From an uncultured Chloroflexia bacterium (GTDB lineage Bacteria; Chloroflexota; Limnocylindria; Limnocylindrales; CSP1-4), in contig CAVYBU010000006.1 of the NCBI GenBank assembly GCA_963766735.1, positions 141,272 through 205,271 of the forward strand: a stretch of 64,000 nucleotides of DNA, in the 5' to 3' direction. The notes beneath the pieces are model-generated. The model made no database searches. It was not told where the DNA came from and was given only the letters and a program-made list of their open reading frames with translations. Of the stretch, positions 43,372 through 56,351 are shown piece after piece. The position numbers were made by a program, and so were the translations under genes. How positions within the stretch are numbered: the first letter of the stretch is position 1; each line of letters starts with the position of its first letter.

Positions 43372-44268
43372 CTACTGGTCCTCGTCCGGCAGCAGCGGCC
43401 GCAGGGCCAGCGAGTACAGCGTCCCGTCGGGGGCGTTGAGGTACACACCGGCCACGATCCCTCCCTCGTACCCGTCCACGCCGACGGCCGATGCCTCGGC
43501 GGGCGTCAGCACCCTCGTTCGCAACTGGAGCGTGTTCGGGTCGGCCGGGAGCGCGAAGTCGGCCGGCGTGAGGTCCGGCCACGGCCACTCGCGAACCCTG
43601 ACGCCCTGGGCGCCAGCCGCATCGATCAGGACGCCGCGGAAGGCCGCGGGCTCGTACGGCGCGCTGCCCAGCGAACCGCCCCGATCGAAGTCCCGCAGTG
43701 AGTCGGCGAGCTTCATGAATGCGCCCTTGATGGCGGTGTCGGCGTCCGGCTCCCCCATCAACCCGAGGGCGGAGATGGTGACAACCTTCGAATCGCCATC
43801 CGCGTGGATCTCGAAGACGGTGCTCGGCGCGTCGGCGACGAGCGGGTTCTGGTACTCCTTCCTGGCCGCAGCGAGGCCGCCCTCTGCCAGCGCGAACACG
43901 AGCAGGTCCTGGATCTGGGCCTCCGAGAGAGTGGCGGTGCGGACCGGGCTGCCCGTGATCACGTCATCGGCCGAGGGCGTGATCGTCGTTGAGTTGCTGA
44001 CGAACACGACGCGTCCGTCGCCGTAGAGCGTGAAGTACGGGACGTGGGCGGCAATCCACTCGACGGGCACGAAGCCGCCGGCCTCGTCGGCCCGCAGGAT
44101 GATCTCGTTGGCCCCGGTCGGGTGGGCCAGCCCTTCCGGAGTGGCCGTGGGCGGTGACGTCGGGTCGGTGTCGGCGGGGCGCGCGGTGCCGGAGCCCGTC
44201 GCGGTGCAGGCAGAGAGGGCGATCGCCAGGGTGAGGAGCGCGGCTGGGCGCCGCAGGCGGGTGGACAT
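43372..44268 (-). CDS. hypothetical lipoprotein
   Basis: Lipobox LSAC; GGFVP...P.FTLYGDGRV...VADAPST. Confidence 0.75.
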   Translation of the reverse strand: MSTRLRRPAALLTLAIALSACTATGSGTARPADTDPTSPPTATPEGLAHPTGANEIILRADEAGGFVPVEWIAAHVPYFTLYGDGRVVFVSNSTTITPSADDVITGSPVRTATLSEAQIQDLLVFALAEGGLAAARKEYQNPLVADAPSTVFEIHADGDSKVVTISALGLMGEPDADTAIKGAFMKLADSLRDFDRGGSLGSAPYEPAAFRGVLIDAAGAQGVRVREWPWPDLTPADFALPADPNTLQLRTRVLTPAEASAVGVDGYEGGIVAGVYLNAPDGTLYSLALRPLLPDEDQ

Positions 44269-44296
44269 GTCGTCCGGGACGCGGGTCCGCGCCGTG

Positions 44297-44354
44297 CGGT
44301 TCCATCGCCGTTCGGTTCCATCGCCAGTCGGCCCATCGCCGTTCGGCCCATCGC
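44297..44354. repeat. four imperfect 15-16-bp tandem repeats
   Basis: CGG(TT/C)CCATCGCC-NNT units. Confidence 0.7.
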
Positions 44355-44454
44355 GGGAGGCAGTCCAGTGGGGCGCTCCGTCGGTCAGGGCCCGCGGACG
44401 CCCTGCCGCCGCGAAGCCTATGCTGGCCACGACCCAACCACCAGGAGGAGCCCG

Positions 44455-44658
44455 ATGGGCGTGATCATCATCCGGGAAATGGTCGGGACGAGCCCCCGAT
44501 CGTGGAGCGACGCCGCTCGCCAGGCCGTGGCGACCGCCTCGAAGACCGTGCGCAACATCCGCACGATCGAGGTGGTGAAATCGACCGCCCAGATCGACGA
44601 CGGTGAGATCGTCGAGTACGAGGTCCAGCTCAAGATCGGCTTCGAGTACGAGGGCTGA
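44455..44658 (+). CDS. dodecin family protein
   Basis: AGGAGG RBS; EMVGTS..SWSDA...ASKTVRNI...IVEYEV.LKIGF. Confidence 0.92.
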   Translation: MGVIIIREMVGTSPRSWSDAARQAVATASKTVRNIRTIEVVKSTAQIDDGEIVEYEVQLKIGFEYEG

Positions 44659-44976
44659 TCCCAGATAAGTCGCGGGTGAGCGGCGCGCGGCACCATGCCG
44701 CGCATGCCTGCGACGACCCATGGCTCCGACCGCCACGGAGCCAGATCCAACCACCCAGGGCCAACCGCCCGGGTTCCCGGGCACCCGCCGCTGGGCGGCC
44801 GGGTTGACGCTGCCGATCCCGCATCCCTATCGTTCGCGCCATCAGACGGCGCCGCTACCGGCAGCAGTTCCCGGCCGAACCCGTCGACGTCAGGGCACGA
44901 GGGACATGCGCTGGTCGCGGTCGGGCCTGGGATCGCAGGTTCAATGCTGTTCGCGGGACCGATCGGGCGGCTGGGG

Positions 44977-47900
44977 ATGAACCCGCTGCCGATCCAGCCG
45001 GCGAAGATCCACCCGCCGCTGCTCCGCCACGATGTCCTCTCCCGAGAGCGCCTCAACGGCTGGCTGGACAACGCGGCGAACGGGCGCGTCGCGCTGGTCA
45101 TCGCCGAGGCCGGGTTCGGCAAGACCACGTTCCTTGCGGACTGGGCGCGCCACACCCGACGCGCAACGGCGTGGTACCGCCTGGAACCGGATGACCGGGA
45201 CTGGCTCGCCTTCATCAGGCATCTGGTCGCAAGCGGCCGGGAGATCGACCCCGGGTTCGCTCCGGATACCTACGACCTGCTGGCCGCACTGGGGCCAGGT
45301 GGTCCGTCCAGGGATGACCTGATCGTCAGCGTCGCCCAGGAGATGGCCGAACTCGCATCGTCGCTGCCCAACGGCCTGAGCCTCCTGTTCGACGACTACC
45401 ACTCCGTCGACGGCAGCCCCGAGACCGAGCCCGTCATGAAGGCCCTGGTCGATCGAACGGGACCCGAATTCTCCCTGGTCATCGCGTCCCGGGCGGCGCC
45501 ATCGCTCGCCCTGGGCAGGCTGCGCGCCCGCGGCGCCCTCTCGCGGATCGACGGCGACGGCCTCTGTTTCGACGTCCCCGAGACGGAGCGCCTCTTCCGG
45601 GATGCCTACCACCAGCCCCTGGACGCGGACGTGGTGGTGGACCTGATCGCCCGGACGGAAGGCTGGGCCGCGCTCCTGTCGCTGGTCCACACGAGCCTTG
45701 AGGGCCGAGCGGCCGTCGAGGCTCGCGGGCTCGTCCGGCACCTGTCGGGCGCTCGCGGCGACATTCGTGACTATCTCGCCGAGGAGGTTCTCGACCACCT
45801 TGCTGATCATCTTGCTGACTTCTTGGTGCGCGCTTCGATCCTCGATGTTGTCGGGCCCGAGTCTGCGGCGCTACTTGGGATCGGCTCCAGAGATGAGTGC
45901 GTGGCAATGATCCGAGACGCCGCTGGCCTTGGTCTTTTGGTCGAGATCACGACGGGTGATGGCCACAGGTTCGTTCCGCTCGTTCGCGAGTACTTGTCCG
46001 CCCGTCTGAGCCGAGAAGAGGGGTGGGCCGCGATCCGCGATGCCCACATGATGCTGGGTGCGCACTACGTCGACTCTGACTGGAGGCTCGCCGCTCATCA
46101 CTATCGCGCTGCGGGGCAGCCGAGTTTGGCAGTCCAAGTCATCCAGAACTCCCTGAGCACCATCCTCGGCAGCGGACAGTACCGAGCTGCAGCTGACCTA
46201 CTCGCCGGTTCCGACGAACTCGTCGTAGGCGAGGTCCTTCGCTCACGACTCTTGCTACAAGTCGGCGCGGTCGCCGAAGCCCGATCCGCGTCGAGTTCCG
46301 CAGTCGCTGCCGCAGCATCGCACCGCCCAGCCGACCAATCGCTCGCTCTGCAGAACGCCGCAACGATCTCTCTGGTGTCTCGTCAGTACGAGGAAGGTCT
46401 CAAATACGCCGAAGAGGCGGAGGCGGCAGCCACCGACAGGTGGGAAGGGGAGCTCGCCCGGGCTCATGTCGCTCTGCTTGGCGCATCGGGAACTGGGAGC
46501 CTTCCGGCCCTGGTGCACCAACTTGAGCGCCTTCTGGGCGTCCAGCGCAAGCGGGCCTACTGGCATCACGCCGCCATCACAAGCCTCAACCTTGCTCAGG
46601 TCCTGGTTTGGCTGGACCGAGACACGGAAGCGCTGCGACATGCAGCCGACGCTGAAGAATTCCTGACCCGGTCATCCCAAGGCTATGAGTTGGTTTCCGT
46701 CAAGCTGGCGCAGGCTCACGCCGAGGCGCACCTCGGTCACTGGTGCGCAGCGCAGGCACTACTCGAGACCTCAGTTCAGACAGGCCACCCCGAGGGACAG
46801 GCTGAAGCGGTTCTAGACGCGGCAGGACTTGCTGCGTGGTTCGGGCCGAACGATCTCCCAGCGCGAATCCTGGCTCAGGTTCGGCGCGAGTCCCTCCCGT
46901 CCAGCTGGAAGGCACATTGGCGTATCGTCGATTTGTGGCTTGAGGAAGAGTCGCAGCGGCGGTCAGAGATCCTCGATGAGTTGCGGGCCGATCCGCCCCC
47001 CTCACTGGAGGTGGGGGCGGCATTTCGATGGCACTACACGAAGGCCAGGGCCTACCACGCTCAAGGGGATGCCAAAGGGTTCGACGACGAGATCGCGCGG
47101 GTTGACCAAGTCTGCCAACTCCAACGCTCACCGGTCGAGGAGCGGCTTCAGGCGTTGCTCCGTGGGGTCGCATCAGGACCACAGCATCTGTCGAGGGTGA
47201 TTGAGTCTTGGAGTCCGGCCTCCGCCCCTCTGATTGGGGTACTCGCGTACGAGGTCGCGGGCCTCCTAGGCTCCCTATCCGATGACGCCGCCGCTGCGGT
47301 TGGTCGTGCCGTGGCAGGTGCCCCATACAGATGGCGACGACCTCTGAGGGTCATGCTCGAGAAGGCCGGCCCGGCGCGACACCTGGACCGTATTGCACAA
47401 CTGCTTGAGGAGATCGGCGAATCGGCCGATGTTCAACTGCTTCGCGAGTACGGTCGTAGGTCGAAACGCGCGCGCGGAAACTGGGGCGAGGACTTGGGGC
47501 GACGACTCGCCCCGAGGGCGTTCATCGAGGATCTAGGCCCGATCTCGATCATCATTGGTGATCGCGTGATCGACGGGCGAGGAATCCGCCGCAGAGTCCT
47601 CGGCCTTCTTGCCTTTCTGATTAGCCAGCCCAACGGATCAGCAACGCCCGACCGCGTCATGGATGCACTGTGGCCTGAGTTGGACCCCGGGCAAGGGAGC
47701 AACTCGATCCACCAGACCATCTACTTCCTTCGGCGCGTGATCGACCCAGACTACCGGGCAGGCGTCTCTCCCGAGTACGTGCACTTCGATAGTGAGGTGA
47801 TCTGGCTCGATCGGGATCTCGTGCAGTGCAGGAGTTGGCGCTGTCAGGCTCTCCTAGGCAAGCGCGCCCTCTCGCCATCAGAGGTCGACGAACTCGTCCG

Positions 47901-48222
47901 GGACTACTGCGGGCGGTTCGCGGCCGAGTTCCCGTACGAGGACTGGGCGTCGGACTATCGGGACCATCTACATGCGCGCTACCTGGGCGAGATCGAGAAG
48001 GTCCTCTCAGAGCCTCGTCATAGTCCAGACCTGCGATGGAGATTATGGGTCGGCCAGCGGGCGCTTTCGGTCGATCCTGAAGCCGATGCGGTCGAGGCTC
48101 ACGTGATCCGGTTGTATCGCCGACTTGGGGCGTCTGCCGCCGCGGCAGAGCAGTACGGGCACTACTCGACCGTCATGAGAGACCAGCTCGGCGTCGAGCC
48201 CCCTGGGATCGAGGACCTCTGA
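44977..48222 (+). CDS. large transcriptional regulator: MalT-like ATPase, helical/TPR-like region, C-terminal winged-HTH + BTAD
   Basis: KIHPP, AEAGFGKTT (Walker A), FDDYH, TEGWAA, DYLAEEV; C-terminal LGP...LLAFL...DALWPE...IYFLRR...Y.G.F....PYEDW; start uncertain. Confidence 0.85.
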   Translation: MNPLPIQPAKIHPPLLRHDVLSRERLNGWLDNAANGRVALVIAEAGFGKTTFLADWARHTRRATAWYRLEPDDRDWLAFIRHLVASGREIDPGFAPDTYDLLAALGPGGPSRDDLIVSVAQEMAELASSLPNGLSLLFDDYHSVDGSPETEPVMKALVDRTGPEFSLVIASRAAPSLALGRLRARGALSRIDGDGLCFDVPETERLFRDAYHQPLDADVVVDLIARTEGWAALLSLVHTSLEGRAAVEARGLVRHLSGARGDIRDYLAEEVLDHLADHLADFLVRASILDVVGPESAALLGIGSRDECVAMIRDAAGLGLLVEITTGDGHRFVPLVREYLSARLSREEGWAAIRDAHMMLGAHYVDSDWRLAAHHYRAAGQPSLAVQVIQNSLSTILGSGQYRAAADLLAGSDELVVGEVLRSRLLLQVGAVAEARSASSSAVAAAASHRPADQSLALQNAATISLVSRQYEEGLKYAEEAEAAATDRWEGELARAHVALLGASGTGSLPALVHQLERLLGVQRKRAYWHHAAITSLNLAQVLVWLDRDTEALRHAADAEEFLTRSSQGYELVSVKLAQAHAEAHLGHWCAAQALLETSVQTGHPEGQAEAVLDAAGLAAWFGPNDLPARILAQVRRESLPSSWKAHWRIVDLWLEEESQRRSEILDELRADPPPSLEVGAAFRWHYTKARAYHAQGDAKGFDDEIARVDQVCQLQRSPVEERLQALLRGVASGPQHLSRVIESWSPASAPLIGVLAYEVAGLLGSLSDDAAAAVGRAVAGAPYRWRRPLRVMLEKAGPARHLDRIAQLLEEIGESADVQLLREYGRRSKRARGNWGEDLGRRLAPRAFIEDLGPISIIIGDRVIDGRGIRRRVLGLLAFLISQPNGSATPDRVMDALWPELDPGQGSNSIHQTIYFLRRVIDPDYRAGVSPEYVHFDSEVIWLDRDLVQCRSWRCQALLGKRALSPSEVDELVRDYCGRFAAEFPYEDWASDYRDHLHARYLGEIEKVLSEPRHSPDLRWRLWVGQRALSVDPEADAVEAHVIRLYRRLGASAAAAEQYGHYSTVMRDQLGVEPPGIEDL

Positions 48223-48316
48223 TCCAGCTGGTCGCGCCCGGCGACGAATGGGCGAGCGAGCGTGTCGGTATTGGCTTCCGAGTGGGCGGCCCGGTGGGCA
48301 TAGGTAGGGTTGCGTA

Positions 48317-48346
48317 TTGACCGGTGTAGTCCGCCGTGCATATAGT
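48317..48346 (+). promoter_or_regulatory. sigma70-type promoter of the riboswitch/peptide operon
   Basis: TTGACC-N18-TATAGT. Confidence 0.75.
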
Positions 48347-48388
48347 CCGGCCCTGCACCAGTACTTTCGTACGGTGCACCAAGGAAAC

Positions 48389-48464
48389 GCTTGGACGCGC
48401 TGATGCCACCACCTGAAATGGGCACTTAGGGTGGAGGCGGAGCGAGTAGTGCAACCGACCGGCT
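48389..48464 (+). ncRNA. c-di-GMP-II riboswitch aptamer
   Basis: GGA-CGC-GC-TGATG-[CCAC..CCT]-GAAAT-GGGCACTT-[AGG GTGG]..GGA-GCG-AGTAGTGCAACCGACC: conserved class II blocks, CGC/GCG stem, GCACT/AGTGC pseudoknot. Confidence 0.88.
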
Positions 48465-48489
48465 TTCGAGTCAGGTCGGTTTTCGTGTT
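48453..48489 (+). terminator. intrinsic terminator overlapping the aptamer 3' end (expression platform)
   Basis: AACCGACC-GGCT-TTCG-AGTC-A-GGTCGGTT followed by TTCGTGTT. Confidence 0.8.
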
Positions 48490-48524
48490 CCCGGCGGACA
48501 CGGAGGCCGCAAGGAGGTACGAGC

Positions 48525-48557
48525 GTGGCACCGAGCAAGGGCCTCAAGGGCTGGTAG
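48525..48557 (+). CDS. 10-aa micropeptide MAPSKGLKGW
   Basis: AAGGAGG at 48511-48517, 7 nt before GTG; ends LKGW like the LKGF end of the next ORF. Confidence 0.55.
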   Translation: MAPSKGLKGW

Positions 48558-48583
48558 GACCAGGATCGCGGGAGGATCGACCG

Positions 48584-48673
48584 ATGAAGGATCGCCTCAT
48601 GCGACTCCTGGCCACTCTCGGCGCAGTCGCCGCATTGGCGCTCGCCGGAGGCGCGTCGCTAAAGGGCTTCTAG
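48584..48673 (+). CDS. 29-aa signal-peptide-like precursor MKDRLMRLLATLGAVAALALAGGASLKGF
   Basis: GGAGG RBS 8 nt before ATG; basic n-region, hydrophobic h-region, short polar tail. Confidence 0.8.
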   Translation: MKDRLMRLLATLGAVAALALAGGASLKGF

Positions 48674-48758
48674 AAGCAGGCAAGGGCCTCAGTACACAAG
48701 TCCTCTTCACTTGTGGGTCGAAGGGGCTAGAGTCCCACCGTTCGGGAACTGAGGACGA

Positions 48759-50123
48759 ATGCCGACAAAGCTGAAGCTCTACATTATTGGAGTCGTAGCG
48801 ACGAGCGCTATCGCGCTCGCTGCTACGACTCGTTTGATTCCAGTCGAGGACGGGGTTGCCCTGACTGTGGGGCCGTTCGGATCTCTCTCGACTCAGGCAG
48901 GCCTCGCATTCTGGTGTGCGGTGACCCTGATCGCGTCCGCGCTTCCCGTCCGAATGCCTCGCGGAACCATGGTGGGCGTTTCGATCGCGCCGCTGATTGC
49001 GGCCACGGTCCTGGGCGGTCCGACTGCCGGAGCCTGGGTCGCGCTCATCGGGACGACGGAGGTGCGTGAGCTGCGCGGCCGTGTTCCGTGGTACGGCTCG
49101 CTGGCCAACCACGCCGGGCTGATGATCCCCGCGATGGTGGCCGGCATGGTCATGCGAGTACTCGGCGTCCCGGGGAGCGAGGAGTACGCGATCACCTTCA
49201 TCGCGGCTCTGATCGGTGCGGCCGCCTTCTTCCTGGTCAACGCGACGCTCACCGCTGCCGCGGTGGCCCTCCAAACTGAGCAGCCATTTCGCAGCGTGTT
49301 GCTGGGCGACGCCAAGGTCTTCGCCACGAACCTAATTGGGCTTGCCCCGCTCGCTTGGCTCATGGCCCAGATGTACGAGGTAGCTTGGTGGGCGAGCTTG
49401 CTGTTCGCCGTTCCGCTCTACACGACGCGGCTCGCGTACCACAACATCATCGAGATGCGCGAGATGTTCACTCAGACCATCACCGCGCTGGCTGGGGCCG
49501 TGGACAAGCGCGATCCGTACACCAGCAAGCACTCGTGGCGGGTCAAGGAGATCGCAGGCGATATCGGACGGGTCATGCGCCTGGGCGAGAGTGACCTCGA
49601 GGCCCTCGAATGGGGCGGCCTGCTGCACGACGTGGGCAAGATCGGCGTGCGGGACGCGGTGCTGCTCAAGCAGGAGAAGCTCAACAAGGAGGAACGGGCG
49701 CAGATGAACGCGCACCCGGTCCTCGGTGCGGAGATCATCGCGCCGGTGACGCGGCTGTCCCGGGAGCTGCCGATCATCCGCCACCACCACGAGTGGTACA
49801 ACGGCTCGGGGTACCCGGACCGGCTGATCGGGGACGAGATCCCGCTGCTGGCACGCATCCTTCACGTCGCGGACGCCTTCGAGGCGATGACCGCCGCCCG
49901 GCCATACCGGATGACGCCGCTGACCTCGGAGCAGGCACTGGGCGAGCTGCGCAAGTTCGCCGGCGTCCAGTTCGATCCCAAGGTGGTGGACGCCTTCGTG
50001 AAGACAGACTGGGCCCAGGATGTGGCCGACCCGGGCCGGACGGCGCAGGCGCGACCGATCCCGCTGATCTCGCAGCACGCGAACCGGACGGCCAACGCCG
50101 TTGCCACTCCCGACGCAACCTGA
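48759..50123 (+). CDS. HD-GYP phosphodiesterase with N-terminal multi-TM sensor domain
   Basis: About 6-7 TM, then DPYTSKHSWRV, LLHDVGKIG, HHEWYNGSGYP, VADAFEAMT..RPYR, QFDP. Confidence 0.93.
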   Translation: MPTKLKLYIIGVVATSAIALAATTRLIPVEDGVALTVGPFGSLSTQAGLAFWCAVTLIASALPVRMPRGTMVGVSIAPLIAATVLGGPTAGAWVALIGTTEVRELRGRVPWYGSLANHAGLMIPAMVAGMVMRVLGVPGSEEYAITFIAALIGAAAFFLVNATLTAAAVALQTEQPFRSVLLGDAKVFATNLIGLAPLAWLMAQMYEVAWWASLLFAVPLYTTRLAYHNIIEMREMFTQTITALAGAVDKRDPYTSKHSWRVKEIAGDIGRVMRLGESDLEALEWGGLLHDVGKIGVRDAVLLKQEKLNKEERAQMNAHPVLGAEIIAPVTRLSRELPIIRHHHEWYNGSGYPDRLIGDEIPLLARILHVADAFEAMTAARPYRMTPLTSEQALGELRKFAGVQFDPKVVDAFVKTDWAQDVADPGRTAQARPIPLISQHANRTANAVATPDAT

Positions 50124-50232
50124 GCACTTCCGCCTCGCCGGACAGCCTCGGCGGAGGTCGCACGGGTCGTAGCGGCAAACCGCTGCGGCACTGGCCGCAC
50201 ATGGATCGGGTGCCCGGCCCCACAATCTCGGG

Positions 50233-52392
50233 ATGCTGATCGGCGGTATCGCGCTCGGGCTGGTGCTCGGTCTGCTCCTGGGCGGGCGCCTGGAGAACCT
50301 GGCCGGCATCCGGCTGCGCTTCCTGCCGCTGCTGTTCGCGGCGGTGATCCTGCGGTTTGCGACGGAGGCGCTGCTCGGGATGGGCGTCGAGGTCGTGGAC
50401 CTGCTGCGCGTGCCGCTGCTCGGAGGCGCGTACGGGCTCCTGCTCTTCACCCTCTGGCACAACCGCTCGTACCCGGGCCTGGCGCTGGCCTTCATCGGGA
50501 TCGCGTCCAACACCCTGGTGATCGTGTGGAACGGGGGCTGGATGCCGGTGTGGCAGCCCGCCTACGACGCGTCCGGGCTGGCGGGACCGCTCTACTCGCA
50601 GCTCCACTTCCCGATCAGTGGCACCGGCGCCGAGTTCCTGGTCCACCTGGGCCCGCTGGCGGACGTCGTCCCGTTCCCCATCCCACCGCTGCAGAACGTC
50701 GCCTCGGTCGGTGACCTGTTCCTGACGGCCGGCCTGGCCATCTTCCTGTTCGCCACCCTGATGAGAACGCCGGCCGACACGCAGACGGCGATCGACGAGG
50801 CAAAGACGGGTCGCTACCTGGGCCTGTCGGGCACGGCCCGCCTGCCGAGGCGTGGCGAGGCGGCGGGGGACGCGACGAGCCTGGGCGTCCGCCCGGGAAC
50901 AGGCCTGACGCCCGGCCTGCAGGAGGCCGCGGCCCTCGAACGCCCGCTGATCATGGGCGCCAGCGGCATGGGCATGTCATCGCCGTCCCAGACGTCGCTC
51001 GCGTCGGAGGGAGCCACCGCCGGAACCGGAGTCGCGGCCGCCACCGCCACCGCCTTCCCCGGCGGCATTGCGATCCCCCGCCCGCGTCCTCGCCGGCGCG
51101 CGCTCGCCCCGCGCGTCCGCCGCCACCCGTACGTGCGCCTGGCGCTCAACGGCTCGTTCTCGGCGCTATGGGTGGGCCAGGTGATCAGCCTGTTCGGGGA
51201 TCGCGTCAACCAGATCGCCCTGGGCGCCTTCGTCTACGAGCTGACCGACTCCCCGTTCGCCGTGGCGCTGACCTTCTTCATGGGGACGATCCCCAACCTG
51301 GTCTTCTCGCCGATCGCCGGGGCCTACGTGGACCGCTGGGACAAGAAGCAGGTGCTGGTGGTCTCGGACATCCTCCGGGCGGCGCTGACCCTGCTCGTGC
51401 CGGTGGCCGTCCTGATCAACGTCTGGCTGGCGTACCCGCTGGTCTTCCTGATCACGACGGTCTCGATCTTCTTCCGACCGGCGCGGGTTGCGATCCTGCC
51501 GCGCCTGGTCCCCAAGCGGGACCTGCTCTCCGCCAACTCCGCGATGTGGGTGGGAGAGACGCTGGCCGACGTCATCAACTACCCGATCGCCGGCCTGTTC
51601 GTGGTCTTCCTGGCTGGATCGCTGCCGATCGCGTTCTGGTTCGATGCCGCCACCTACCTGGTCTCGGCCGCCCTGCTGGCCTCGATCGCGATGCCGCCGC
51701 TGGCCCGGCGAATCCGCGGCACGGACGCCGCCGATGGTCCGGAGGGAGCGAACGAGGGCGAGGGCGGGACAGACTCCCAGACCTCGATCCTCACCGACAT
51801 GAAGGTGGGATGGGCATTCCTCCGCCACGAGACCGTCCTGCTGGCGAACACGATCCAGGGGACGGCCGGCCAGTTCGCGGTCGGCATCGTCACGGTGTCC
51901 GCCATCATCCTGGCGAGGCAGATCACGGGTTCGGATGGCAACGAGTACCGCGCGACCTACGCGTTCATGGAGACGGCCATCGGCCTCGGCAACCTGATGG
52001 GCGGCTTCGCCCTGGGCATGGTGGCCACGCGCGTCCGCAAGGGGCGGCTGGTGATCGCCGCCTACACGGTCTTCGGCGTCCTGATCTTCCTGGTCGGCCT
52101 GACCGATTCGATCCCGCTGATCCTGGGGCTGCTGTTCGGGGTCGGCGTGGCGAACATGGCGTTCGTCATCCCCAGCCAGACGATGTTCCAGGAGCGCACG
52201 CCGCCGGAGCTGATGGGGCGCGTGGTCAGCCTCCGGTTTGCCCTCGTGTTCGGCGGTATGTCCGTGGCCATGGCCGTGGGCGGCCTCCTGGTGGGGATCT
52301 TCGGGCCGAGCCCGGTGATCGCGGCGGCCGGACTGCTGTCGATCGTCGCCGGTCTCGCGGGGCTCGGCGTCAAGGCGCTGCGGGAGGCGTGA
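50233..52392 (+). CDS. DUF5317-like membrane domain fused to an MFS transporter
   Basis: N-terminal GGRLENL, SN..VI..NGGWMPV, LAD, SVGD; C-terminal LWVGQVISLFGD, GAYVDRWDKK, QERTPPELMGRV. Confidence 0.85.
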   Translation: MLIGGIALGLVLGLLLGGRLENLAGIRLRFLPLLFAAVILRFATEALLGMGVEVVDLLRVPLLGGAYGLLLFTLWHNRSYPGLALAFIGIASNTLVIVWNGGWMPVWQPAYDASGLAGPLYSQLHFPISGTGAEFLVHLGPLADVVPFPIPPLQNVASVGDLFLTAGLAIFLFATLMRTPADTQTAIDEAKTGRYLGLSGTARLPRRGEAAGDATSLGVRPGTGLTPGLQEAAALERPLIMGASGMGMSSPSQTSLASEGATAGTGVAAATATAFPGGIAIPRPRPRRRALAPRVRRHPYVRLALNGSFSALWVGQVISLFGDRVNQIALGAFVYELTDSPFAVALTFFMGTIPNLVFSPIAGAYVDRWDKKQVLVVSDILRAALTLLVPVAVLINVWLAYPLVFLITTVSIFFRPARVAILPRLVPKRDLLSANSAMWVGETLADVINYPIAGLFVVFLAGSLPIAFWFDAATYLVSAALLASIAMPPLARRIRGTDAADGPEGANEGEGGTDSQTSILTDMKVGWAFLRHETVLLANTIQGTAGQFAVGIVTVSAIILARQITGSDGNEYRATYAFMETAIGLGNLMGGFALGMVATRVRKGRLVIAAYTVFGVLIFLVGLTDSIPLILGLLFGVGVANMAFVIPSQTMFQERTPPELMGRVVSLRFALVFGGMSVAMAVGGLLVGIFGPSPVIAAAGLLSIVAGLAGLGVKALREA

Positions 52393-52491
52393 CACGACGA
52401 ACCGGCCCGAAGCGGGCGGGGCTAGGTACACTGGCGGCCGCGTGAGGCGACGCCCGGAGGCGATGCCCGCGGAGAGGAGATCGATCACCGG

Positions 52492-53131
52492 ATGACCGAC
52501 AACGAGCGCGACCCGGAGGCAGTTGGCCCCGAGGGCGTGGCGGACGAGACCGAGGCCGCGGACGACGCCGCCTCAGATACCGACGAGACGACTGCCGAGG
52601 AGGCGGCGGCGGAGGAGGCGACGCGAGAGGACGCGGACGCGAGCACGGGCGAGGGTGTCGACGAGGGCAAGGACGTCGACGAGTGGGCCGCTGCCGTATC
52701 CACCGGCCCTGCCGCGCCCGCCGCAGTTGCCGCCGGCACGACGGGGAAGCCTGCCCGCGGCCGGAAGGCCAAGGCGGCTGCACCGGCCGCTGCGCCGACC
52801 ATCTCGGAGCAGGCCGTCCACATCGGCGACCGCGCGTCCGCCTGGTTCGTGATCGTGACGATCGGCGTGTTCGTGGCGATCTTTGCCAGCGCGCTGCTGT
52901 TCGGCAAGGGCGGCTTCGTGACTGACCTGCTGGCGACCCCGACGCCGGTCGTCACACCGGCCCCCGTTGTCACGCCGACGGCGCCCGACGGCGGCGCCAT
53001 CGGTCGCGCCGAGCGCGGAACCCACCGCAGCTCCGACGCCGGCGCCGAGCCCCAGCGATTCGGCTGCCCCGTCTGCCAGCCCCGAACCGTCCCCCAGCGA
53101 CGCCGCCTCGCCGAGTCCTTCGGCGAGCTAG
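52492..53131 (+). CDS. acidic single-TM protein with P/S/T-rich tail (frameshift near 52985)
   Basis: AGGAG RBS; D/E-rich N-terminus, TM, then a PT/PS tail continuing in a shifted frame to TAG 53131. Confidence 0.6.
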
Positions 53132-53141
53132 CCCTCCGGCG

Positions 53142-53801
53142 ATGGACGAGCCCCGGGCACGCACGAGCGAGGCCCGGGCGCGGATGGTCGCGGACCAGCT
53201 CCTCGGCCGCGACATCCGGGACGAGCGAGTCCTCAAGGCCATGGACACGGTCCCGCGGGAGGCGTTCGTGCCGGCGAAGGAACGCGACCACGCCTACCTC
53301 GATGGCCCGCTGGCGATCGGCGCCGGCCAGACGATCAGCCAGCCGTACATGGTGGCCCGCATGGCGGAGCTGCTCCACGCGGCGCGCGGCGACCGTGTCC
53401 TCGAGGTCGGCACCGGCTCCGGGTACGCCGCGGCGGTGCTGGCGGAGATGGGCTGCCAAGTGACGACGATCGAACGGGAGCGGGGGCTGGCGGCGGAGGC
53501 GCGCGCCCGCCTGGCGGACCTGGGCTACGCGGACCGCGTGGACGTGCGCACGGGCGACGGGAGCCTGGGCCTGCCCGAGGAGGCGCCGTGGGACGGCATC
53601 GTGGTGGCGGCGGCCGCGCCGGAGATCCCGGACGCCCTGCGCGAGCAGCTGGGTGACGGTCGGCGGCTGGTGATCCCGGTCGGATCGCGCCGGCAGCAGC
53701 AGCTCATGGTGGTGGAGCGGCACGGCGCCGAGTGGCAGGAGCAGTCGGACGGGGCCTGCGTCTTCGTGCCGCTGATCGGCGGCGGGGGGTGGTCCGGCTG
53801 A
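53142..53801 (+). CDS. pcm: protein-L-isoaspartate O-methyltransferase
   Basis: VPREAFV, GQTISQPYMV, LEVGTGSGY, GDGSLG, LVIPVG, FVPLIG. Confidence 0.95.
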   Translation: MDEPRARTSEARARMVADQLLGRDIRDERVLKAMDTVPREAFVPAKERDHAYLDGPLAIGAGQTISQPYMVARMAELLHAARGDRVLEVGTGSGYAAAVLAEMGCQVTTIERERGLAAEARARLADLGYADRVDVRTGDGSLGLPEEAPWDGIVVAAAAPEIPDALREQLGDGRRLVIPVGSRRQQQLMVVERHGAEWQEQSDGACVFVPLIGGGGWSG

Positions 53802-53859
53802 TCGACGGGGCCGGCTTGGCCGGTGACGGCGGGCCCGTGCGGCCGGCGAAGGACCGCCT

Positions 53860-55131
53860 TCAGGCGCCCAGCAGCGCGGCAGGGACCACGGCGATCCCGT
53901 CCCGCCGACGATAGGCCTCGCGCCCGGTCGTCACGATGACGGCCTCGACGCGATCGTGACCGAGCCGGTCCTGCAGCCAGACCAGGTGGCGGACATCCGC
54001 ATCATCGATGACGGCTGCCAACTTGATCTCGATCGCCAGGACGCGCCGGTCGGCGCCCTCGACGATCAGGTCGATCTCGTGTTCGCCGCCATGTTCGCGG
54101 TAGTGGAAGACGTCTGCCTCGGCGGCCTGGGCGTAGACGCGGACATCCAGGGTCACGAGGCTCTCGAACAGGGCTCCCAGCAGGGTTCCGTGGCGGCCGT
54201 TGAGCGAACCGGGCGCGTCTCCCCGCAACAGCGCATCGATCGTGACGCGCCGGAGACGCGCGGCAAGCGCAGGATCGGCCAGCTGGTGCTTGGGCGCCAG
54301 ACCAAGACGGGCGAGGTCCGTGCCCGTCGGCCGCCACCCCGGAACCGGTTCGACGAGCCACAGGCTCTCGAGGATGTCGGCGTACCGCGCGGCGGTCGGC
54401 CGTGTCGGCCCGTCAGGCCTGCCACCACCCGCCGCCTCCCGGATCTTCGCCAGCGAGGTTGTCGTGGAGATCGCGGCCGCGTAGGCCTCCATCCAGCGCC
54501 GCAGCGCGGGAGCGTTCCTCACCGGCAGCTCGGCATCGGCAAGATCGCGGTCGATCACGCGCGACAGGTATCCGTCGAGCTCAGCGCGTGCGGACCTGTC
54601 AGGCAGGCCGAGAAGGCCGGGCAGGCCGGAGGCAAGCATCTGGCGGGCGTACTCATCCAGGCCGACACCGGTGGCGCCGGCAACGCGCTCCGCATTCCCC
54701 CGCAGCAGCGCAGCCAGGCTGACCGATGGCGATGCGATGCCACGCTCCATGAGCGTCATCGGGCGCATGCGGAGCGAGACGATTCGACCTGCTCCGGTGT
54801 GCGTGGGTGGGTTCGCGGGGGAGGCGGATCCGGTGAGCAGGAACTGGCCCGGAGATCGGTCTGCGTCGACGGCGCGCCGGACCAGGTCCCAGGACGACGG
54901 CATGCGCTGCCACTCGTCGATGAGGACGGGGCGCGGGGATTGCACGAGGCGCTCCGGATCCCCCTCGATGATCGCCCTGGTCCCGGGGTCGTCCAGCCGG
55001 AACACAGTCCGAGCCCTGGCGCTCGCCGTCTCGGTCTTGCCAACGGCGCGAGGACCCACGATCTCCAGGGCGGCGACACCCGTCATGAGCTCGTCGAGCT
55101 GATCGTCCAGGACCCGGCGCCGATACTGCAT
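53860..55131 (-). CDS. AAA ATPase with C-terminal DUF4143/PD-(D/E)XK-like domain
   Basis: GPRAVGKT, IDEWQ, LLTGS, D.AL, LFES, EIDLIVE...AIEIK. Confidence 0.9.
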   Translation of the reverse strand: MQYRRRVLDDQLDELMTGVAALEIVGPRAVGKTETASARARTVFRLDDPGTRAIIEGDPERLVQSPRPVLIDEWQRMPSSWDLVRRAVDADRSPGQFLLTGSASPANPPTHTGAGRIVSLRMRPMTLMERGIASPSVSLAALLRGNAERVAGATGVGLDEYARQMLASGLPGLLGLPDRSARAELDGYLSRVIDRDLADAELPVRNAPALRRWMEAYAAAISTTTSLAKIREAAGGGRPDGPTRPTAARYADILESLWLVEPVPGWRPTGTDLARLGLAPKHQLADPALAARLRRVTIDALLRGDAPGSLNGRHGTLLGALFESLVTLDVRVYAQAAEADVFHYREHGGEHEIDLIVEGADRRVLAIEIKLAAVIDDADVRHLVWLQDRLGHDRVEAVIVTTGREAYRRRDGIAVVPAALLGA

Positions 55132-55139
55132 CAGGCGTC

Positions 55140-55197
55140 TACATTACCATTCATCACTCATGTACATTACCATTCATCACAGTCCTACTTTACATTC
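55140..55197. repeat. AT-rich direct repeats with 23-bp period
   Basis: TACATTACCATTCATCAC at 55140-55157 and 55163-55180; degenerate third copy from 55186. Confidence 0.85.
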
Positions 55198-55269
55198 TCG
55201 CGGAAGTGACGCGGAGCCGGTGAACGGACCTTTCGGGAGCCGATCGCGCCCGGATATACTCGGCCGGCC

Positions 55270-56346
55270 ATGACCCATGTGTTCGTTGCCCCCCACCCGG
55301 ACGACGTTGCGCTCTCGTGCGGCGGCCTCATCGCCAGCCTGCGCGAGCTCGGCCAGAACGTCACGATCCTGACGCTCTACTCCGGCTCCGGAAGCGCTGA
55401 CCGGCTCACGCCGTACCAGCGCGAGGCACTGGGCTTCGGGTCCAAGGCAGCCTGGCCGGTCAGCGAGGCGTTCAACCGCGCCCACCTGCAGGCCGACTTC
55501 CCCGAGGACGCCGCAGCGGCCCCCTGGCAGGCGACGAAGGAGGGCCTGGACGCCACGCAGGCCGAGGCGGACGCCGCCGCCAAGCGGTTCTGGCAGCGGT
55601 CCTCCTGGTACCGCCGGGCGAGGATCCACAACGAGTCCCTGGCGGGCCAGCCGGTCATCGACGACCTGGCCACGCAGGGCGCCGTCATGACCTCCGAGCG
55701 GACCGATGCGGCTGCCGCGGGCGACACCATGGCCGAGCGGCGCCTGGAGGACGAGCAGTACGCCGCCTTCGCGGAGGTCTCCGTCGTCTGGCTGGACCTC
55801 CCCGACGCGGTCTTCCGCGGCTACGAGGGCGACGACCAGCTCCTGGGCACGCCGCGCGCGGACGATCCGGCGCCCGTGGACCTGCTCCGCCGCGAGATCG
55901 CGCGCCTGGAGCCGTCCCGCATCTACCTGCCGCTGGGCATCGGCGGCCACGTTGACCACCAGCTGGCCCGCGACGCCGGGATCGCGCTCATGCACGACGC
56001 CCAGGCCTGGGTGATGCCCGGCCCGGACAACGCGGACATGACCGTCTTCTACGAGGACTTCCCCTACGCGTGGTGGGAGGACTTCGGCCGCCTGGAAGAC
56101 CTGCCTCCGGACGCGCTGGCCGGGCTGCCGGAGGGCGTTTCGCTGACCGCGGACTTCGGGGACGTGGGCGACGTGCTGGAGCGCAAGATCCAGGGGATCC
56201 TGCTCTACGCGAGCCAGATCGAGCGGCTGTTCGACGACACGGCCGCGGCGGCGGCCGCCGTGCGTGCGTACGCGGCGCGGGTGGCGGACATCGGCTCCGT
56301 CGCGAGCGGCGCCGCCGAGCGGTACTGGGTCACGACGCCGGCCTGA
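55270..56346 (+). CDS. PIG-L/LmbE family deacetylase
   Basis: APHPDDVALSCGG, R.LED, PLGIGGHVDH, YEDFPY, YASQ. Confidence 0.9.
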   Translation: MTHVFVAPHPDDVALSCGGLIASLRELGQNVTILTLYSGSGSADRLTPYQREALGFGSKAAWPVSEAFNRAHLQADFPEDAAAAPWQATKEGLDATQAEADAAAKRFWQRSSWYRRARIHNESLAGQPVIDDLATQGAVMTSERTDAAAAGDTMAERRLEDEQYAAFAEVSVVWLDLPDAVFRGYEGDDQLLGTPRADDPAPVDLLRREIARLEPSRIYLPLGIGGHVDHQLARDAGIALMHDAQAWVMPGPDNADMTVFYEDFPYAWWEDFGRLEDLPPDALAGLPEGVSLTADFGDVGDVLERKIQGILLYASQIERLFDDTAAAAAAVRAYAARVADIGSVASGAAERYWVTTPA

Positions 56347-56351
56347 CGGTC

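Follow-up and report, generated by a model that had tools for sequence, protein, structure and literature searches.

The agr system of Bacillota comprises the precursor AgrD, the membrane endopeptidase AgrB, the polytopic sensor kinase AgrC and AgrA. In the diffusible signal factor (DSF)-RpfC/RpfG system of Xanthomonas the signal is a fatty acid, and a separate hybrid kinase phosphorylates a REC-HD-GYP protein. Small membrane proteins can modulate sensors as well (MgrB and SafA, both with PhoQ), and these modulators are not known to be conserved outside narrow lineages. To our knowledge, no peptide quorum sensing has been described in the phylum Chloroflexota. RRNPP systems are presented in one account (PMC10075063) as pairs of genes found in Firmicutes and on the mobile elements of these bacteria. 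Here, we analyse a locus in a 64,000-nucleotide stretch of DNA (the window) from an uncultured Chloroflexia bacterium (GTDB class Limnocylindria; contig CAVYBU010000006.1, positions 141,272 to 205,271), in which a STAND-type regulator is followed by a cyclic di-GMP (c-di-GMP) riboswitch, two micropeptide open reading frames (ORF1 and ORF2), a MASE9-HD-GYP sensor protein and a fusion of DUF5317 with a major facilitator superfamily (MFS) transporter. We reason, with a confidence that stands evenly poised, that the locus encodes c-di-GMP-gated peptide ligands; DUF5317-MFS would handle these ligands, and the phosphodiesterase would sense them through its MASE9 domain.

Two micropeptide genes in a conserved unit

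All of these elements are co-oriented on the forward strand, as the preliminary description had listed them, and the ORF, profile and RNA scans agreed with it. The unit from regulator through riboswitch, peptides and HD-GYP to DUF5317-MFS recurs entire in 12 of 12 loci of the same genus and in a census of related loci (the 80 best of 544 confirmed relatives), a recurrence by which the arrangement exceeds chance; together, these elements are one conserved unit. Within the genus, the HD-GYP protein is 66-77% identical to the window copy (tblastn, n=12), and every locus has the two ORFs, the gene for DUF5317 and the end of the regulator. Census fractions are given over the 70 loci with at least 450 nt of upstream sequence, the 74 with enough downstream sequence or the 64 with at least 1.5 kb upstream; locus L247 was excluded from alignment A7.

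ORF1 (48525-48557) begins with GTG and encodes a leaderless peptide of 10 residues (M-A-P-x4-K-G-W), with a Shine-Dalgarno (SD) sequence, AAGGAGG (48511-48517), lying 7 nt upstream. ORF2 (48584-48673; SD GGGAGGA at 48570-48576, also 7 nt upstream) encodes a signal-anchor-like peptide of 29 residues, laid out as a basic N-terminus, a hydrophobic run of some 14-17 residues, the invariant A-x-A-G-G-A-S and a hydrophobic-K/R-G-F tail. The conserved small ORFs on which the preliminary description had staked its case are present in the homologous loci: the ORF2 tail in 70/70, and ORF1 in 69/70 (56 by a strict pattern and 13 by eye, including three tandem-repeat forms). Among 30 further loci of family f1, ORF2 was found in all 30, an HD-GYP gene downstream of it in 29, and ORF1 in 27 of 28. 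Family f4 (14 loci) keeps the same gene order, with an ORF1 of 8-9 codons and the four protein domains in 14/14 and an ORF2 of 32 codons in at least 10/14; throughout family f1 the length of ORF2 is fixed at 29 residues. A six-frame profile of ORF2 found matches in 52 of 91 f1 genomes and 39 of 103 f4 genomes, and in none of the 12 genomes of the small-genome family f2. The genes are closely spaced: the ORF1 stop often lies 2-15 nt (range 2-28 nt) from the ORF2 start, and 13-23 nt separate the end of ORF2 from the HD-GYP start, as placed, in family f4.

The substitution patterns of the two ORFs differ in kind. ORF2 has a dN/dS of 0.16 (66 pairs), as against 2.8 in frame +2, the one alternative frame open to scoring, and its variable columns number 18, 10 and 25 of 29 at codon positions 1, 2 and 3. 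In ORF1, length, start and the final three codons are conserved around a free middle (overall dN/dS 1.29); since its last residue is substituted among W, F and Y, we take ORF1 to be selected at the amino-acid level. Judged by these patterns, both small ORFs are genuine conserved genes selected at the peptide level. Neither Pfam nor NCBIfam holds a model matching the ORF2-like micropeptides, and peptides of such length stand at or below common gene-calling limits, which together make the module invisible to routine annotation.

Both peptides end in the same way, with a hydrophobic residue, K or R, a small residue (G) and an aromatic one. In 8 of 59 loci the two peptides have exactly the same final five residues, with seven variants represented, and in 7 of these 8 the serine is written AGC in ORF1 and TCN in ORF2; as the codons differ, what is maintained would be the amino-acid match, and gene conversion would not account for it. 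In three loci (L163, L180 and L187) ORF1 is expanded to 3, 3 and 4 tandem copies of the motif, respectively, and the copies of L180 have diverged save for the five motif residues, which carry one synonymous change. Tandem duplication of the pheromone within its propeptide is named as a feature of RRNPPA systems (PMC11343458). On these alignments, the shared tail would be the functional unit of both peptides.

Peptide partners across Chloroflexota

Of 401 sampled Chloroflexota genomes, 116 have DUF5317, which was also detected in the Thermus and Thermotoga controls, and 55 have MASE9; the tallies of ORF2-profile, DUF5317, MASE9 and LspA matches each include one unpublished genome (G131, G527, G527 and G358, in that order), the sequences of which were left out of the analysis. 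The fusion of DUF5317 to an MFS is confined to families f1 and f4 (frames of ~580-770 residues), and in the other lineages of the phylum DUF5317 is mostly a stand-alone protein (~150-320 residues). We made use of 20 such stand-alone loci, hand-picked across the phylum for diversity from ranked lists, in which the gene neighbouring DUF5317 encodes an HD-GYP, GGDEF-HD-GYP or GGDEF-EAL protein (13 loci), a histidine kinase (3) or a STAND-TPR regulator (4). These STAND-TPR regulators lie directly 5' of peptide and DUF5317, and end in BTAD in L080, L088 and L091 (undetected in L090). A scan for small ORFs around DUF5317, akin to the one that the preliminary description had proposed, gave, on the same strand and within 1.7 kb, 18 small hydrophobic ORFs in 16 of the 20 loci, as against 2.5 expected (Poisson P 2e-10); in L074 and L076 the small ORF lies ~2 kb away. 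These ORFs occur in varied gene orders, also downstream of DUF5317. In their products a basic N-terminus leads into a hydrophobic stretch, and a cluster of small residues is followed by a short tail in which Trp is often present.

From the side of the sensor, 40 MASE9 loci outside the class were examined. Where a locus has DUF5317 and upstream sequence, a hydrophobic ORF lies 5' of the MASE9 gene in 9 of 9 cases; where DUF5317 is lacking, it does so in 3 of 28 (plus one doubtful). The output domains attached to MASE9 are HD-GYP, histidine kinase and HD-GYP with GGDEF; L082, for example, reads peptide, DUF5317, MASE9-GAF-histidine kinase. Going by these neighbourhoods, the small ORFs are genetically tied to DUF5317 and to MASE9 sensors regardless of the output domain, and considering that peptide, DUF5317 and MASE9 travel together while the output changes, the peptide and DUF5317 would belong to the input side. 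DUF5317 also adjoins cytosolic PAS-GAF HD-GYP proteins and STAND-TPR-BTAD regulators, so that MASE9 need not be the sole receptor.

The MFS keeps different company. Six loci have an MFS either downstream of MASE9-HD-GYP or fused with it; all 6 contain a leaderless ORF of 8-11 codons with an SD, and in two of another family (L193 and L198) this mini-ORF is followed by a hydrophobic ORF of 24 codons with the same or a similar tail, which is the two-ORF logic of the window. The proposal that the MFS moves the precursor is modified by this: co-occurrence ties the MFS to the leaderless mini-ORFs and not to the signal-anchored peptide. Five loci (L193, L194, L198, L200 and L206) carry MASE9, HD-GYP and MFS in single frames of 846-851 residues, each preceded by a Trp-containing ORF of 8-9 codons.

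Further small ORFs were seen beside these proteins. Five PAS-GAF-HD-GYP loci (L072, L073, L075, L077 and L079) have a conserved hydrophobic ORF of 47 residues directly 5' of DUF5317, and a second, hydrophilic one of 23-36 residues between DUF5317 and the HD-GYP gene. Nine other loci, all devoid of DUF5317, have Trp arrays of period 5 directly 5' of the MASE9 gene and on its strand (among them L195:5040-5276 and L197:4949-5317, both on the minus strand, L191, L204, L207, L210, L222 and L227), with up to ~15 near-identical pentapeptide units in one ORF and, in L195, an SD; a search of both strands of 635 kb found no such arrays elsewhere. Against Pentapeptide_4 the arrays scored 22.9 and 15.6 bits (cut-off 38), and they may be multi-copy peptide precursors or beta-helix/pentapeptide-repeat proteins.

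Riboswitch, sensor, fusion protein and regulator

Upstream of ORF1 lies a c-di-GMP-II aptamer (RF01786; 48384-48467), which matches positions 1-84 of the 84-position model with 59.5 bits (gathering score 53.5; E 1e-10); its core is present in 70/70 related loci and covariation of its helices is visible over 32 loci (alignment A6). It overlaps a hairpin with a U tract that resembles an intrinsic terminator (48452/48457 to ~48490; one such element as against 0.2 expected), both arms of which are invariant in the same alignment. The hairpin forms in the ligand-free minimum-free-energy fold and its 5' arm consists of conserved nucleotides of the aptamer core, from which we infer an ON switch: binding of c-di-GMP would prevent termination. 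A conserved hairpin with a GTAC-N-GTAC core, whose flanking complementary bases co-vary between genera, opens the leader, between the -10 element of the promoter and the aptamer (48359-48376).

Sediment metatranscriptome contigs from four runs carry the stretch from riboswitch through ORF1 to ORF2 nearly unaltered, with small shares (0.06-0.16). The contigs of two studies stop at 48680/48681, 8 nt past the ORF2 stop and where strain variation begins; such ends could reflect an abundant, short leader-peptide RNA, or else the assembly may have broken off in the strain-variable spacer. We stress that the RNA data are only compatible with expression; they are taken to prove neither transcription nor a 3' end, and no weight is given to the missing cover over the HD-GYP gene.

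Cyclic-dinucleotide aptamers precede peptide genes elsewhere too. In L089 a c-di-GMP-I-GGC aptamer (RF03167; 5717-5793, minus strand, 61.6 bits) stands just 5' of small hydrophobic peptide genes alone, and in L074 a c-di-GMP-II-GAG aptamer (RF03169; 8558-8641, minus strand, 40.9 bits) lies ahead of the peptide gene, which is exactly duplicated. Fifteen further peptide loci held no cyclic-dinucleotide aptamer at gathering score, and an Rfam search upstream of the L076 gene gave no match. A c-di-AMP riboswitch (L088:9546-9682, minus strand, 97.7 bits) was registered 3 kb from a STAND-peptide-DUF5317 cassette. The window's own genome has eight more c-di-GMP-II-like elements below the gathering score (28-45 bits). 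The six that were inspected (C2:353897, C8:11144, C7:2913, C7:5530, C7:8174 and C3:312819; L006-L011) share a distinct consensus, each immediately 5' of a gene the product of which is secreted or lipoprotein-like, and the three on contig C7 stand in tandem at a spacing of ~2.6 kb; they may represent a variant aptamer class.

The sensor gene (48759-50123, 454 residues) encodes a multi-pass, MASE9-like membrane domain (~1-235) followed by an HD-GYP domain (247-409). With 129.9 bits for HD_5 (cut-off 27.2; E 1e-37), 79.5 bits for HD and both the H-D and G-Y-P motifs in the translation, the latter is a predicted c-di-GMP phosphodiesterase. The MASE9 assignment (PF20972) straddles the cut-off of 24.3 bits, with 23.4 bits by hmmscan and 25.6 in the six-frame genome search, and orthologues reach up to 41 bits; MASE9-HD-GYP orthologues are 56-81% identical across the class. 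The MASE9 alignment matches the N-termini of L074 and L076 with a probability of 97% (hhalign), and no MASE9 relationship could be detected for the N-terminus of the HD-GYP protein in L084. MASE9 has a conserved loop, E-x-R-E-x-R-G-x-x-P-W-Y-G. The paper that defines MASE9 (10.1101/2021.11.05.467447) proposes ligand binding within the membrane. The conserved spacer ahead of the gene (48687-48754) could pair its 5' end (48687-48693) with the SD region of HD-GYP (48748-48754), and this pairing may couple HD-GYP translation to that of ORF2. As an RNA element the spacer is plausible yet unsupported: 1 of 22 predicted pairs covaries, the z-score of -1.08 does not go beyond shuffles, and the element is missing in L017 and L038.

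The fusion protein (50233-52392, 719 residues) joins DUF5317 (26-172) through a low-complexity linker to an MFS of the DHA3/MFS_3 type (~307-709), and both parts are present in 74/74 related loci. DUF5317 (PF17248) scored 76.5 bits (cut-off 25; profile positions 2-150 of 151) and 79.8 bits in a second search, and the MFS part 70.4 bits for MFS_1 (cut-off 33.4), 61.2 for MFS_3 (cut-off 27) and 200.4 for TIGR00900, short of that subfamily's cut-off of 319.6. Five hydrophobic cores were recognised in DUF5317; its loop charges are +2.3, -0.9, +1.3 and -3.1, and its invariant polar residues are two Asn, two Asp and one Ser, with no invariant Cys or His. Hydropathy and loop charges place N100, D144, S158 and D161 outside, and the tail of an N-in ORF2 peptide would lie on the same outer face. 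The preliminary description had DUF5317 cleave the peptide as a protease, a role for which homology to LspA, to prepilin peptidase A24 or to any PDB chain proved undetectable. Compared by hhalign, the genome's own LspA reached a probability of 31% and the LspA profile (built from 26 of 45 LspA matches) 22%, over only 21-23 residues and with the LspA Asp facing a gap; A24 reached 0.25% and the MASE9 domain 0.04%. The profile search of PDB gave three hits below E 10, to unrelated proteins (cytochrome c', sperm antigen), at E 0.18 or worse.

The regulator (44977-48222, 1081 residues; a longer frame has an alternative upstream start at 44695) combines a MalT-like NTPase N-terminus, a helical middle and a C-terminal, weakly scoring winged helix with BTAD, the usual position of which is N-terminal in SARP/AfsR proteins. 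The NCBIfam MalT model (NF003420) matches residues 8-393 only, with 165.9 bits, and its equivalog cut-off of 537 bits is not reached; by these scores the regulator is MalT-like at its NTPase end only. Among Pfam models, BTAD scored 23.6 bits (cut-off 22.1), Trans_reg_C 19.5 (cut-off 26.2) and AAA_16 22.6 (below its cut-off), and no TPR was detected in the window regulator. Its C-terminal 240 residues are found upstream in 12/12 loci of the genus and 64/64 related loci. Downstream of it, a promoter-like site (TTGACC-18-TATAGT, 48317-48346; -35 at 48317-48322, -10 at 48341-48346) occurs once, as against 0.1 expected in shuffles, within a conserved block (48300-48346) in which two (G/C)GTA repeats, 11 nt apart, abut the -35. 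The block can be anchored on the -35 in 69/70 related loci, its consensus columns being at least 80% conserved, and is likely an activator site, which the regulator would bind.

The window's own assembly holds a second copy of the locus (L003; contig C10, 1-11300, matching window positions 43703-56350 with 95-99% DNA identity). From the promoter on, DNA identity is 95%, and 98% over the alignment from the promoter to the HD-GYP start; the small ORFs are identical. Of the second regulator, the first 240 residues are identical and the remainder (the sensor and DNA-binding parts) about 35-40% so. We read the copy as a paralogue or, alternatively, as a mosaic allele that stems from a second strain. 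In all, the genome has 16 GGDEF, 2 EAL and 4 HD_5 matches, the latter apparently two near-duplicate contig pairs.

Proposed mechanism, its rivals and described systems

We propose that the STAND/SARP-like activator drives a sigma-70-type promoter and that transcription would read through the terminator only with c-di-GMP on the class II aptamer. The read-through RNA would encode, in this order, the 10-residue leaderless peptide, the 29-residue N-in/C-out anchor peptide, MASE9-HD-GYP and DUF5317-MFS. The shared motif (hydrophobic-K/R-G-aromatic with a free carboxylate) would be a ribosomally made oligopeptide ligand: DUF5317, with its polar residues outward, would mature or present the tail of the anchored peptide, the MFS would carry the leaderless one across the membrane, and the MASE9 membrane domain would sense the peptide and set HD-GYP activity. 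High c-di-GMP would thereby induce its own degradation machinery, the activity of which a peptide layer, autocrine or population-wide, would tune. A broader and more tentative reading is that MASE9 is a receptor family for short ribosomal peptides with Trp or Phe at their end or within them, the genes of which stand immediately 5' of the sensor as leaderless mini-ORFs, signal-anchored micropeptides or tandem arrays; DUF5317 would mature or present the anchored form, the MFS would carry the leaderless one, and in Limnocylindria production would be riboswitch-gated.

Several observations weigh against the peptide-ligand mechanism. The peptide is near-invariant over the whole family, unlike diversifying pheromones, and the regulators of the two copies in the assembly have strongly diverged while their peptides stay identical. 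DUF5317 also lies beside cytosolic PAS-GAF HD-GYP proteins and so is not a dedicated MASE9 accessory, and it resembles no known peptidase among those compared (LspA, A24 and PDB chains). In many distant ORF2 homologues a Pro stands right after the small-residue cluster, a position unfavourable for signal peptidase I. A stoichiometric membrane subunit, too, would be expected to be translated in close coupling with the enzyme gene. Moreover, the sampled genomes are mutually related and the loci were selected by us, hence all counts given here are descriptive and overstate independence.

The main rival builds on some of the same observations: ORF2 would be an uncleaved single-pass micro-membrane subunit that binds MASE9 and/or DUF5317-MFS, in the manner of MgrB and PhoQ, and ORF1 would mainly load ribosomes. 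The tight ORF coupling (2-28 nt between ORF1 and ORF2, 13-23 nt from ORF2 to HD-GYP in family f4), the constant 29 residues across f1, a helix rich in A, G and S that suits helix packing, the Pro after the G-A cluster and the in-membrane ligand binding proposed for MASE9 (10.1101/2021.11.05.467447) all speak for such a subunit. We nevertheless consider it less likely than the peptide-ligand mechanism, as it leaves unexplained why the leaderless, hydrophilic ORF1 keeps the same C-terminal motif, why the two tails agree in seven variants that write Ser with different codons and why ORF1 multiplies into tandem copies of that motif, and as conservation peaks in the extramembrane tail and the preceding cluster and not along one helical face.

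The two remaining alternatives dispense with a peptide that acts on the sensor. If the small ORFs were leader peptides only, translation or pausing at K-G-aromatic-stop would remodel the mRNA and set HD-GYP translation, for which one can cite the strong SDs and compact coupling of both ORFs, the possible anti-SD/SD pairing between the ORF2 stop and the HD-GYP start, and an ORF1 conserved just in its ends and length (dN/dS 1.29). This is rendered improbable by purifying selection along the entire ORF2, by similar ORFs near DUF5317 in many gene orders (including downstream of it), by a terminal aromatic that is interchangeable among W, F and Y though these use different tRNAs, by tandem motif copies, which would put pause sites in the middle of an ORF, and by a spacer in which 1 of 22 pairs covaries, not above shuffles, and which is missing in L017 and L038. 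Least probable of all, in our estimate, is a c-di-GMP-controlled bacteriocin- or toxin-like peptide, with DUF5317 as immunity or maturation protein, the MFS as exporter and sensors that merely regulate production. A small cationic hydrophobic peptide beside a polytopic membrane protein and an efflux-type MFS would fit it, and one distant homologue has a sub-threshold class IIb bacteriocin match, which at E 0.2 falls short of significance; in known pore formers the hydrophobic stretch is longer and the conserved part larger, the neighbours are sensor domains of varying output and STAND regulators and not typical bacteriocin genes, and conservation across the class is extreme.

If the peptide-ligand mechanism holds, it would for the first time assign a function and a class of ligand to DUF5317 and MASE9, both widespread and uncharacterised, extend ribosomal peptide signalling beyond Bacillota via unrelated machinery, and wire a peptide signal directly to c-di-GMP hydrolysis under riboswitch control; on the broader reading, the riboswitch gating in Limnocylindria would couple the second messenger to a peptide-based cell-cell signal. 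The preliminary description had known of no system with this architecture, and the literature on DUF5317, on MASE9, on c-di-GMP-II with HD-GYP (among the papers listed), on Limnocylindria with c-di-GMP and on tandem Trp precursors likewise gave no account of it; no published description of the module was found in the literature searched.

Compared with agr, the likeness is that of a small peptide gene co-transcribed with a polytopic membrane protein of ~190 residues and a multi-pass sensor (in L082, in that order). In contrast to agr, ORF1 and ORF2 contain no Cys, AgrD-type or other, which makes a thiolactone impossible; Pfam recognises only DUF5317 and MFS in the fusion and no AgrB-family peptidase, though no comparison aimed at AgrB was made; the output is HD-GYP in place of a phosphorelay; and expression is riboswitch-gated. 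As in the RRNPP(A) systems (Rap-Phr, NprR-NprX, PlcR-PapR, Rgg-SHP, AimR-AimP), a receptor-type regulator adjoins a short signal-like propeptide gene (STAND-TPR-BTAD regulators stand directly 5' of peptide and DUF5317 in L080, L088 and L091), the active part would be the last C-terminal residues, and tandem copies are known (PMC11343458). Unlike their NTPase-free TPR receptors, the candidate here is a STAND NTPase of ~1080 residues with a SARP-type DNA-binding end, in the window copy of which Pfam detects no TPR; there is no linked Opp importer, and a membrane sensor and DUF5317 belong to the unit. Judged by its components, the locus falls into neither the agr nor the RRNPP class.

With DSF-RpfC/RpfG the proposed module would share a cell-cell signal that in the end activates an HD-GYP phosphodiesterase, so that c-di-GMP falls, but in this locus one polypeptide combines sensor domain and HD-GYP, and a ribosomal peptide is the candidate signal. 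Like MgrB and SafA, ORF2 is a single-pass protein of ~30 residues encoded with a membrane sensor on which it may act; unlike them, it is paired with a leaderless peptide of the same tail and with a DUF5317-type partner. Finally, a messenger aptamer ahead of the enzyme that degrades the messenger is the negative feedback of other c-di-GMP riboswitches that control turnover genes, from which this locus differs in that its first products are two micropeptides, as does L089, where the aptamer precedes peptide genes alone.

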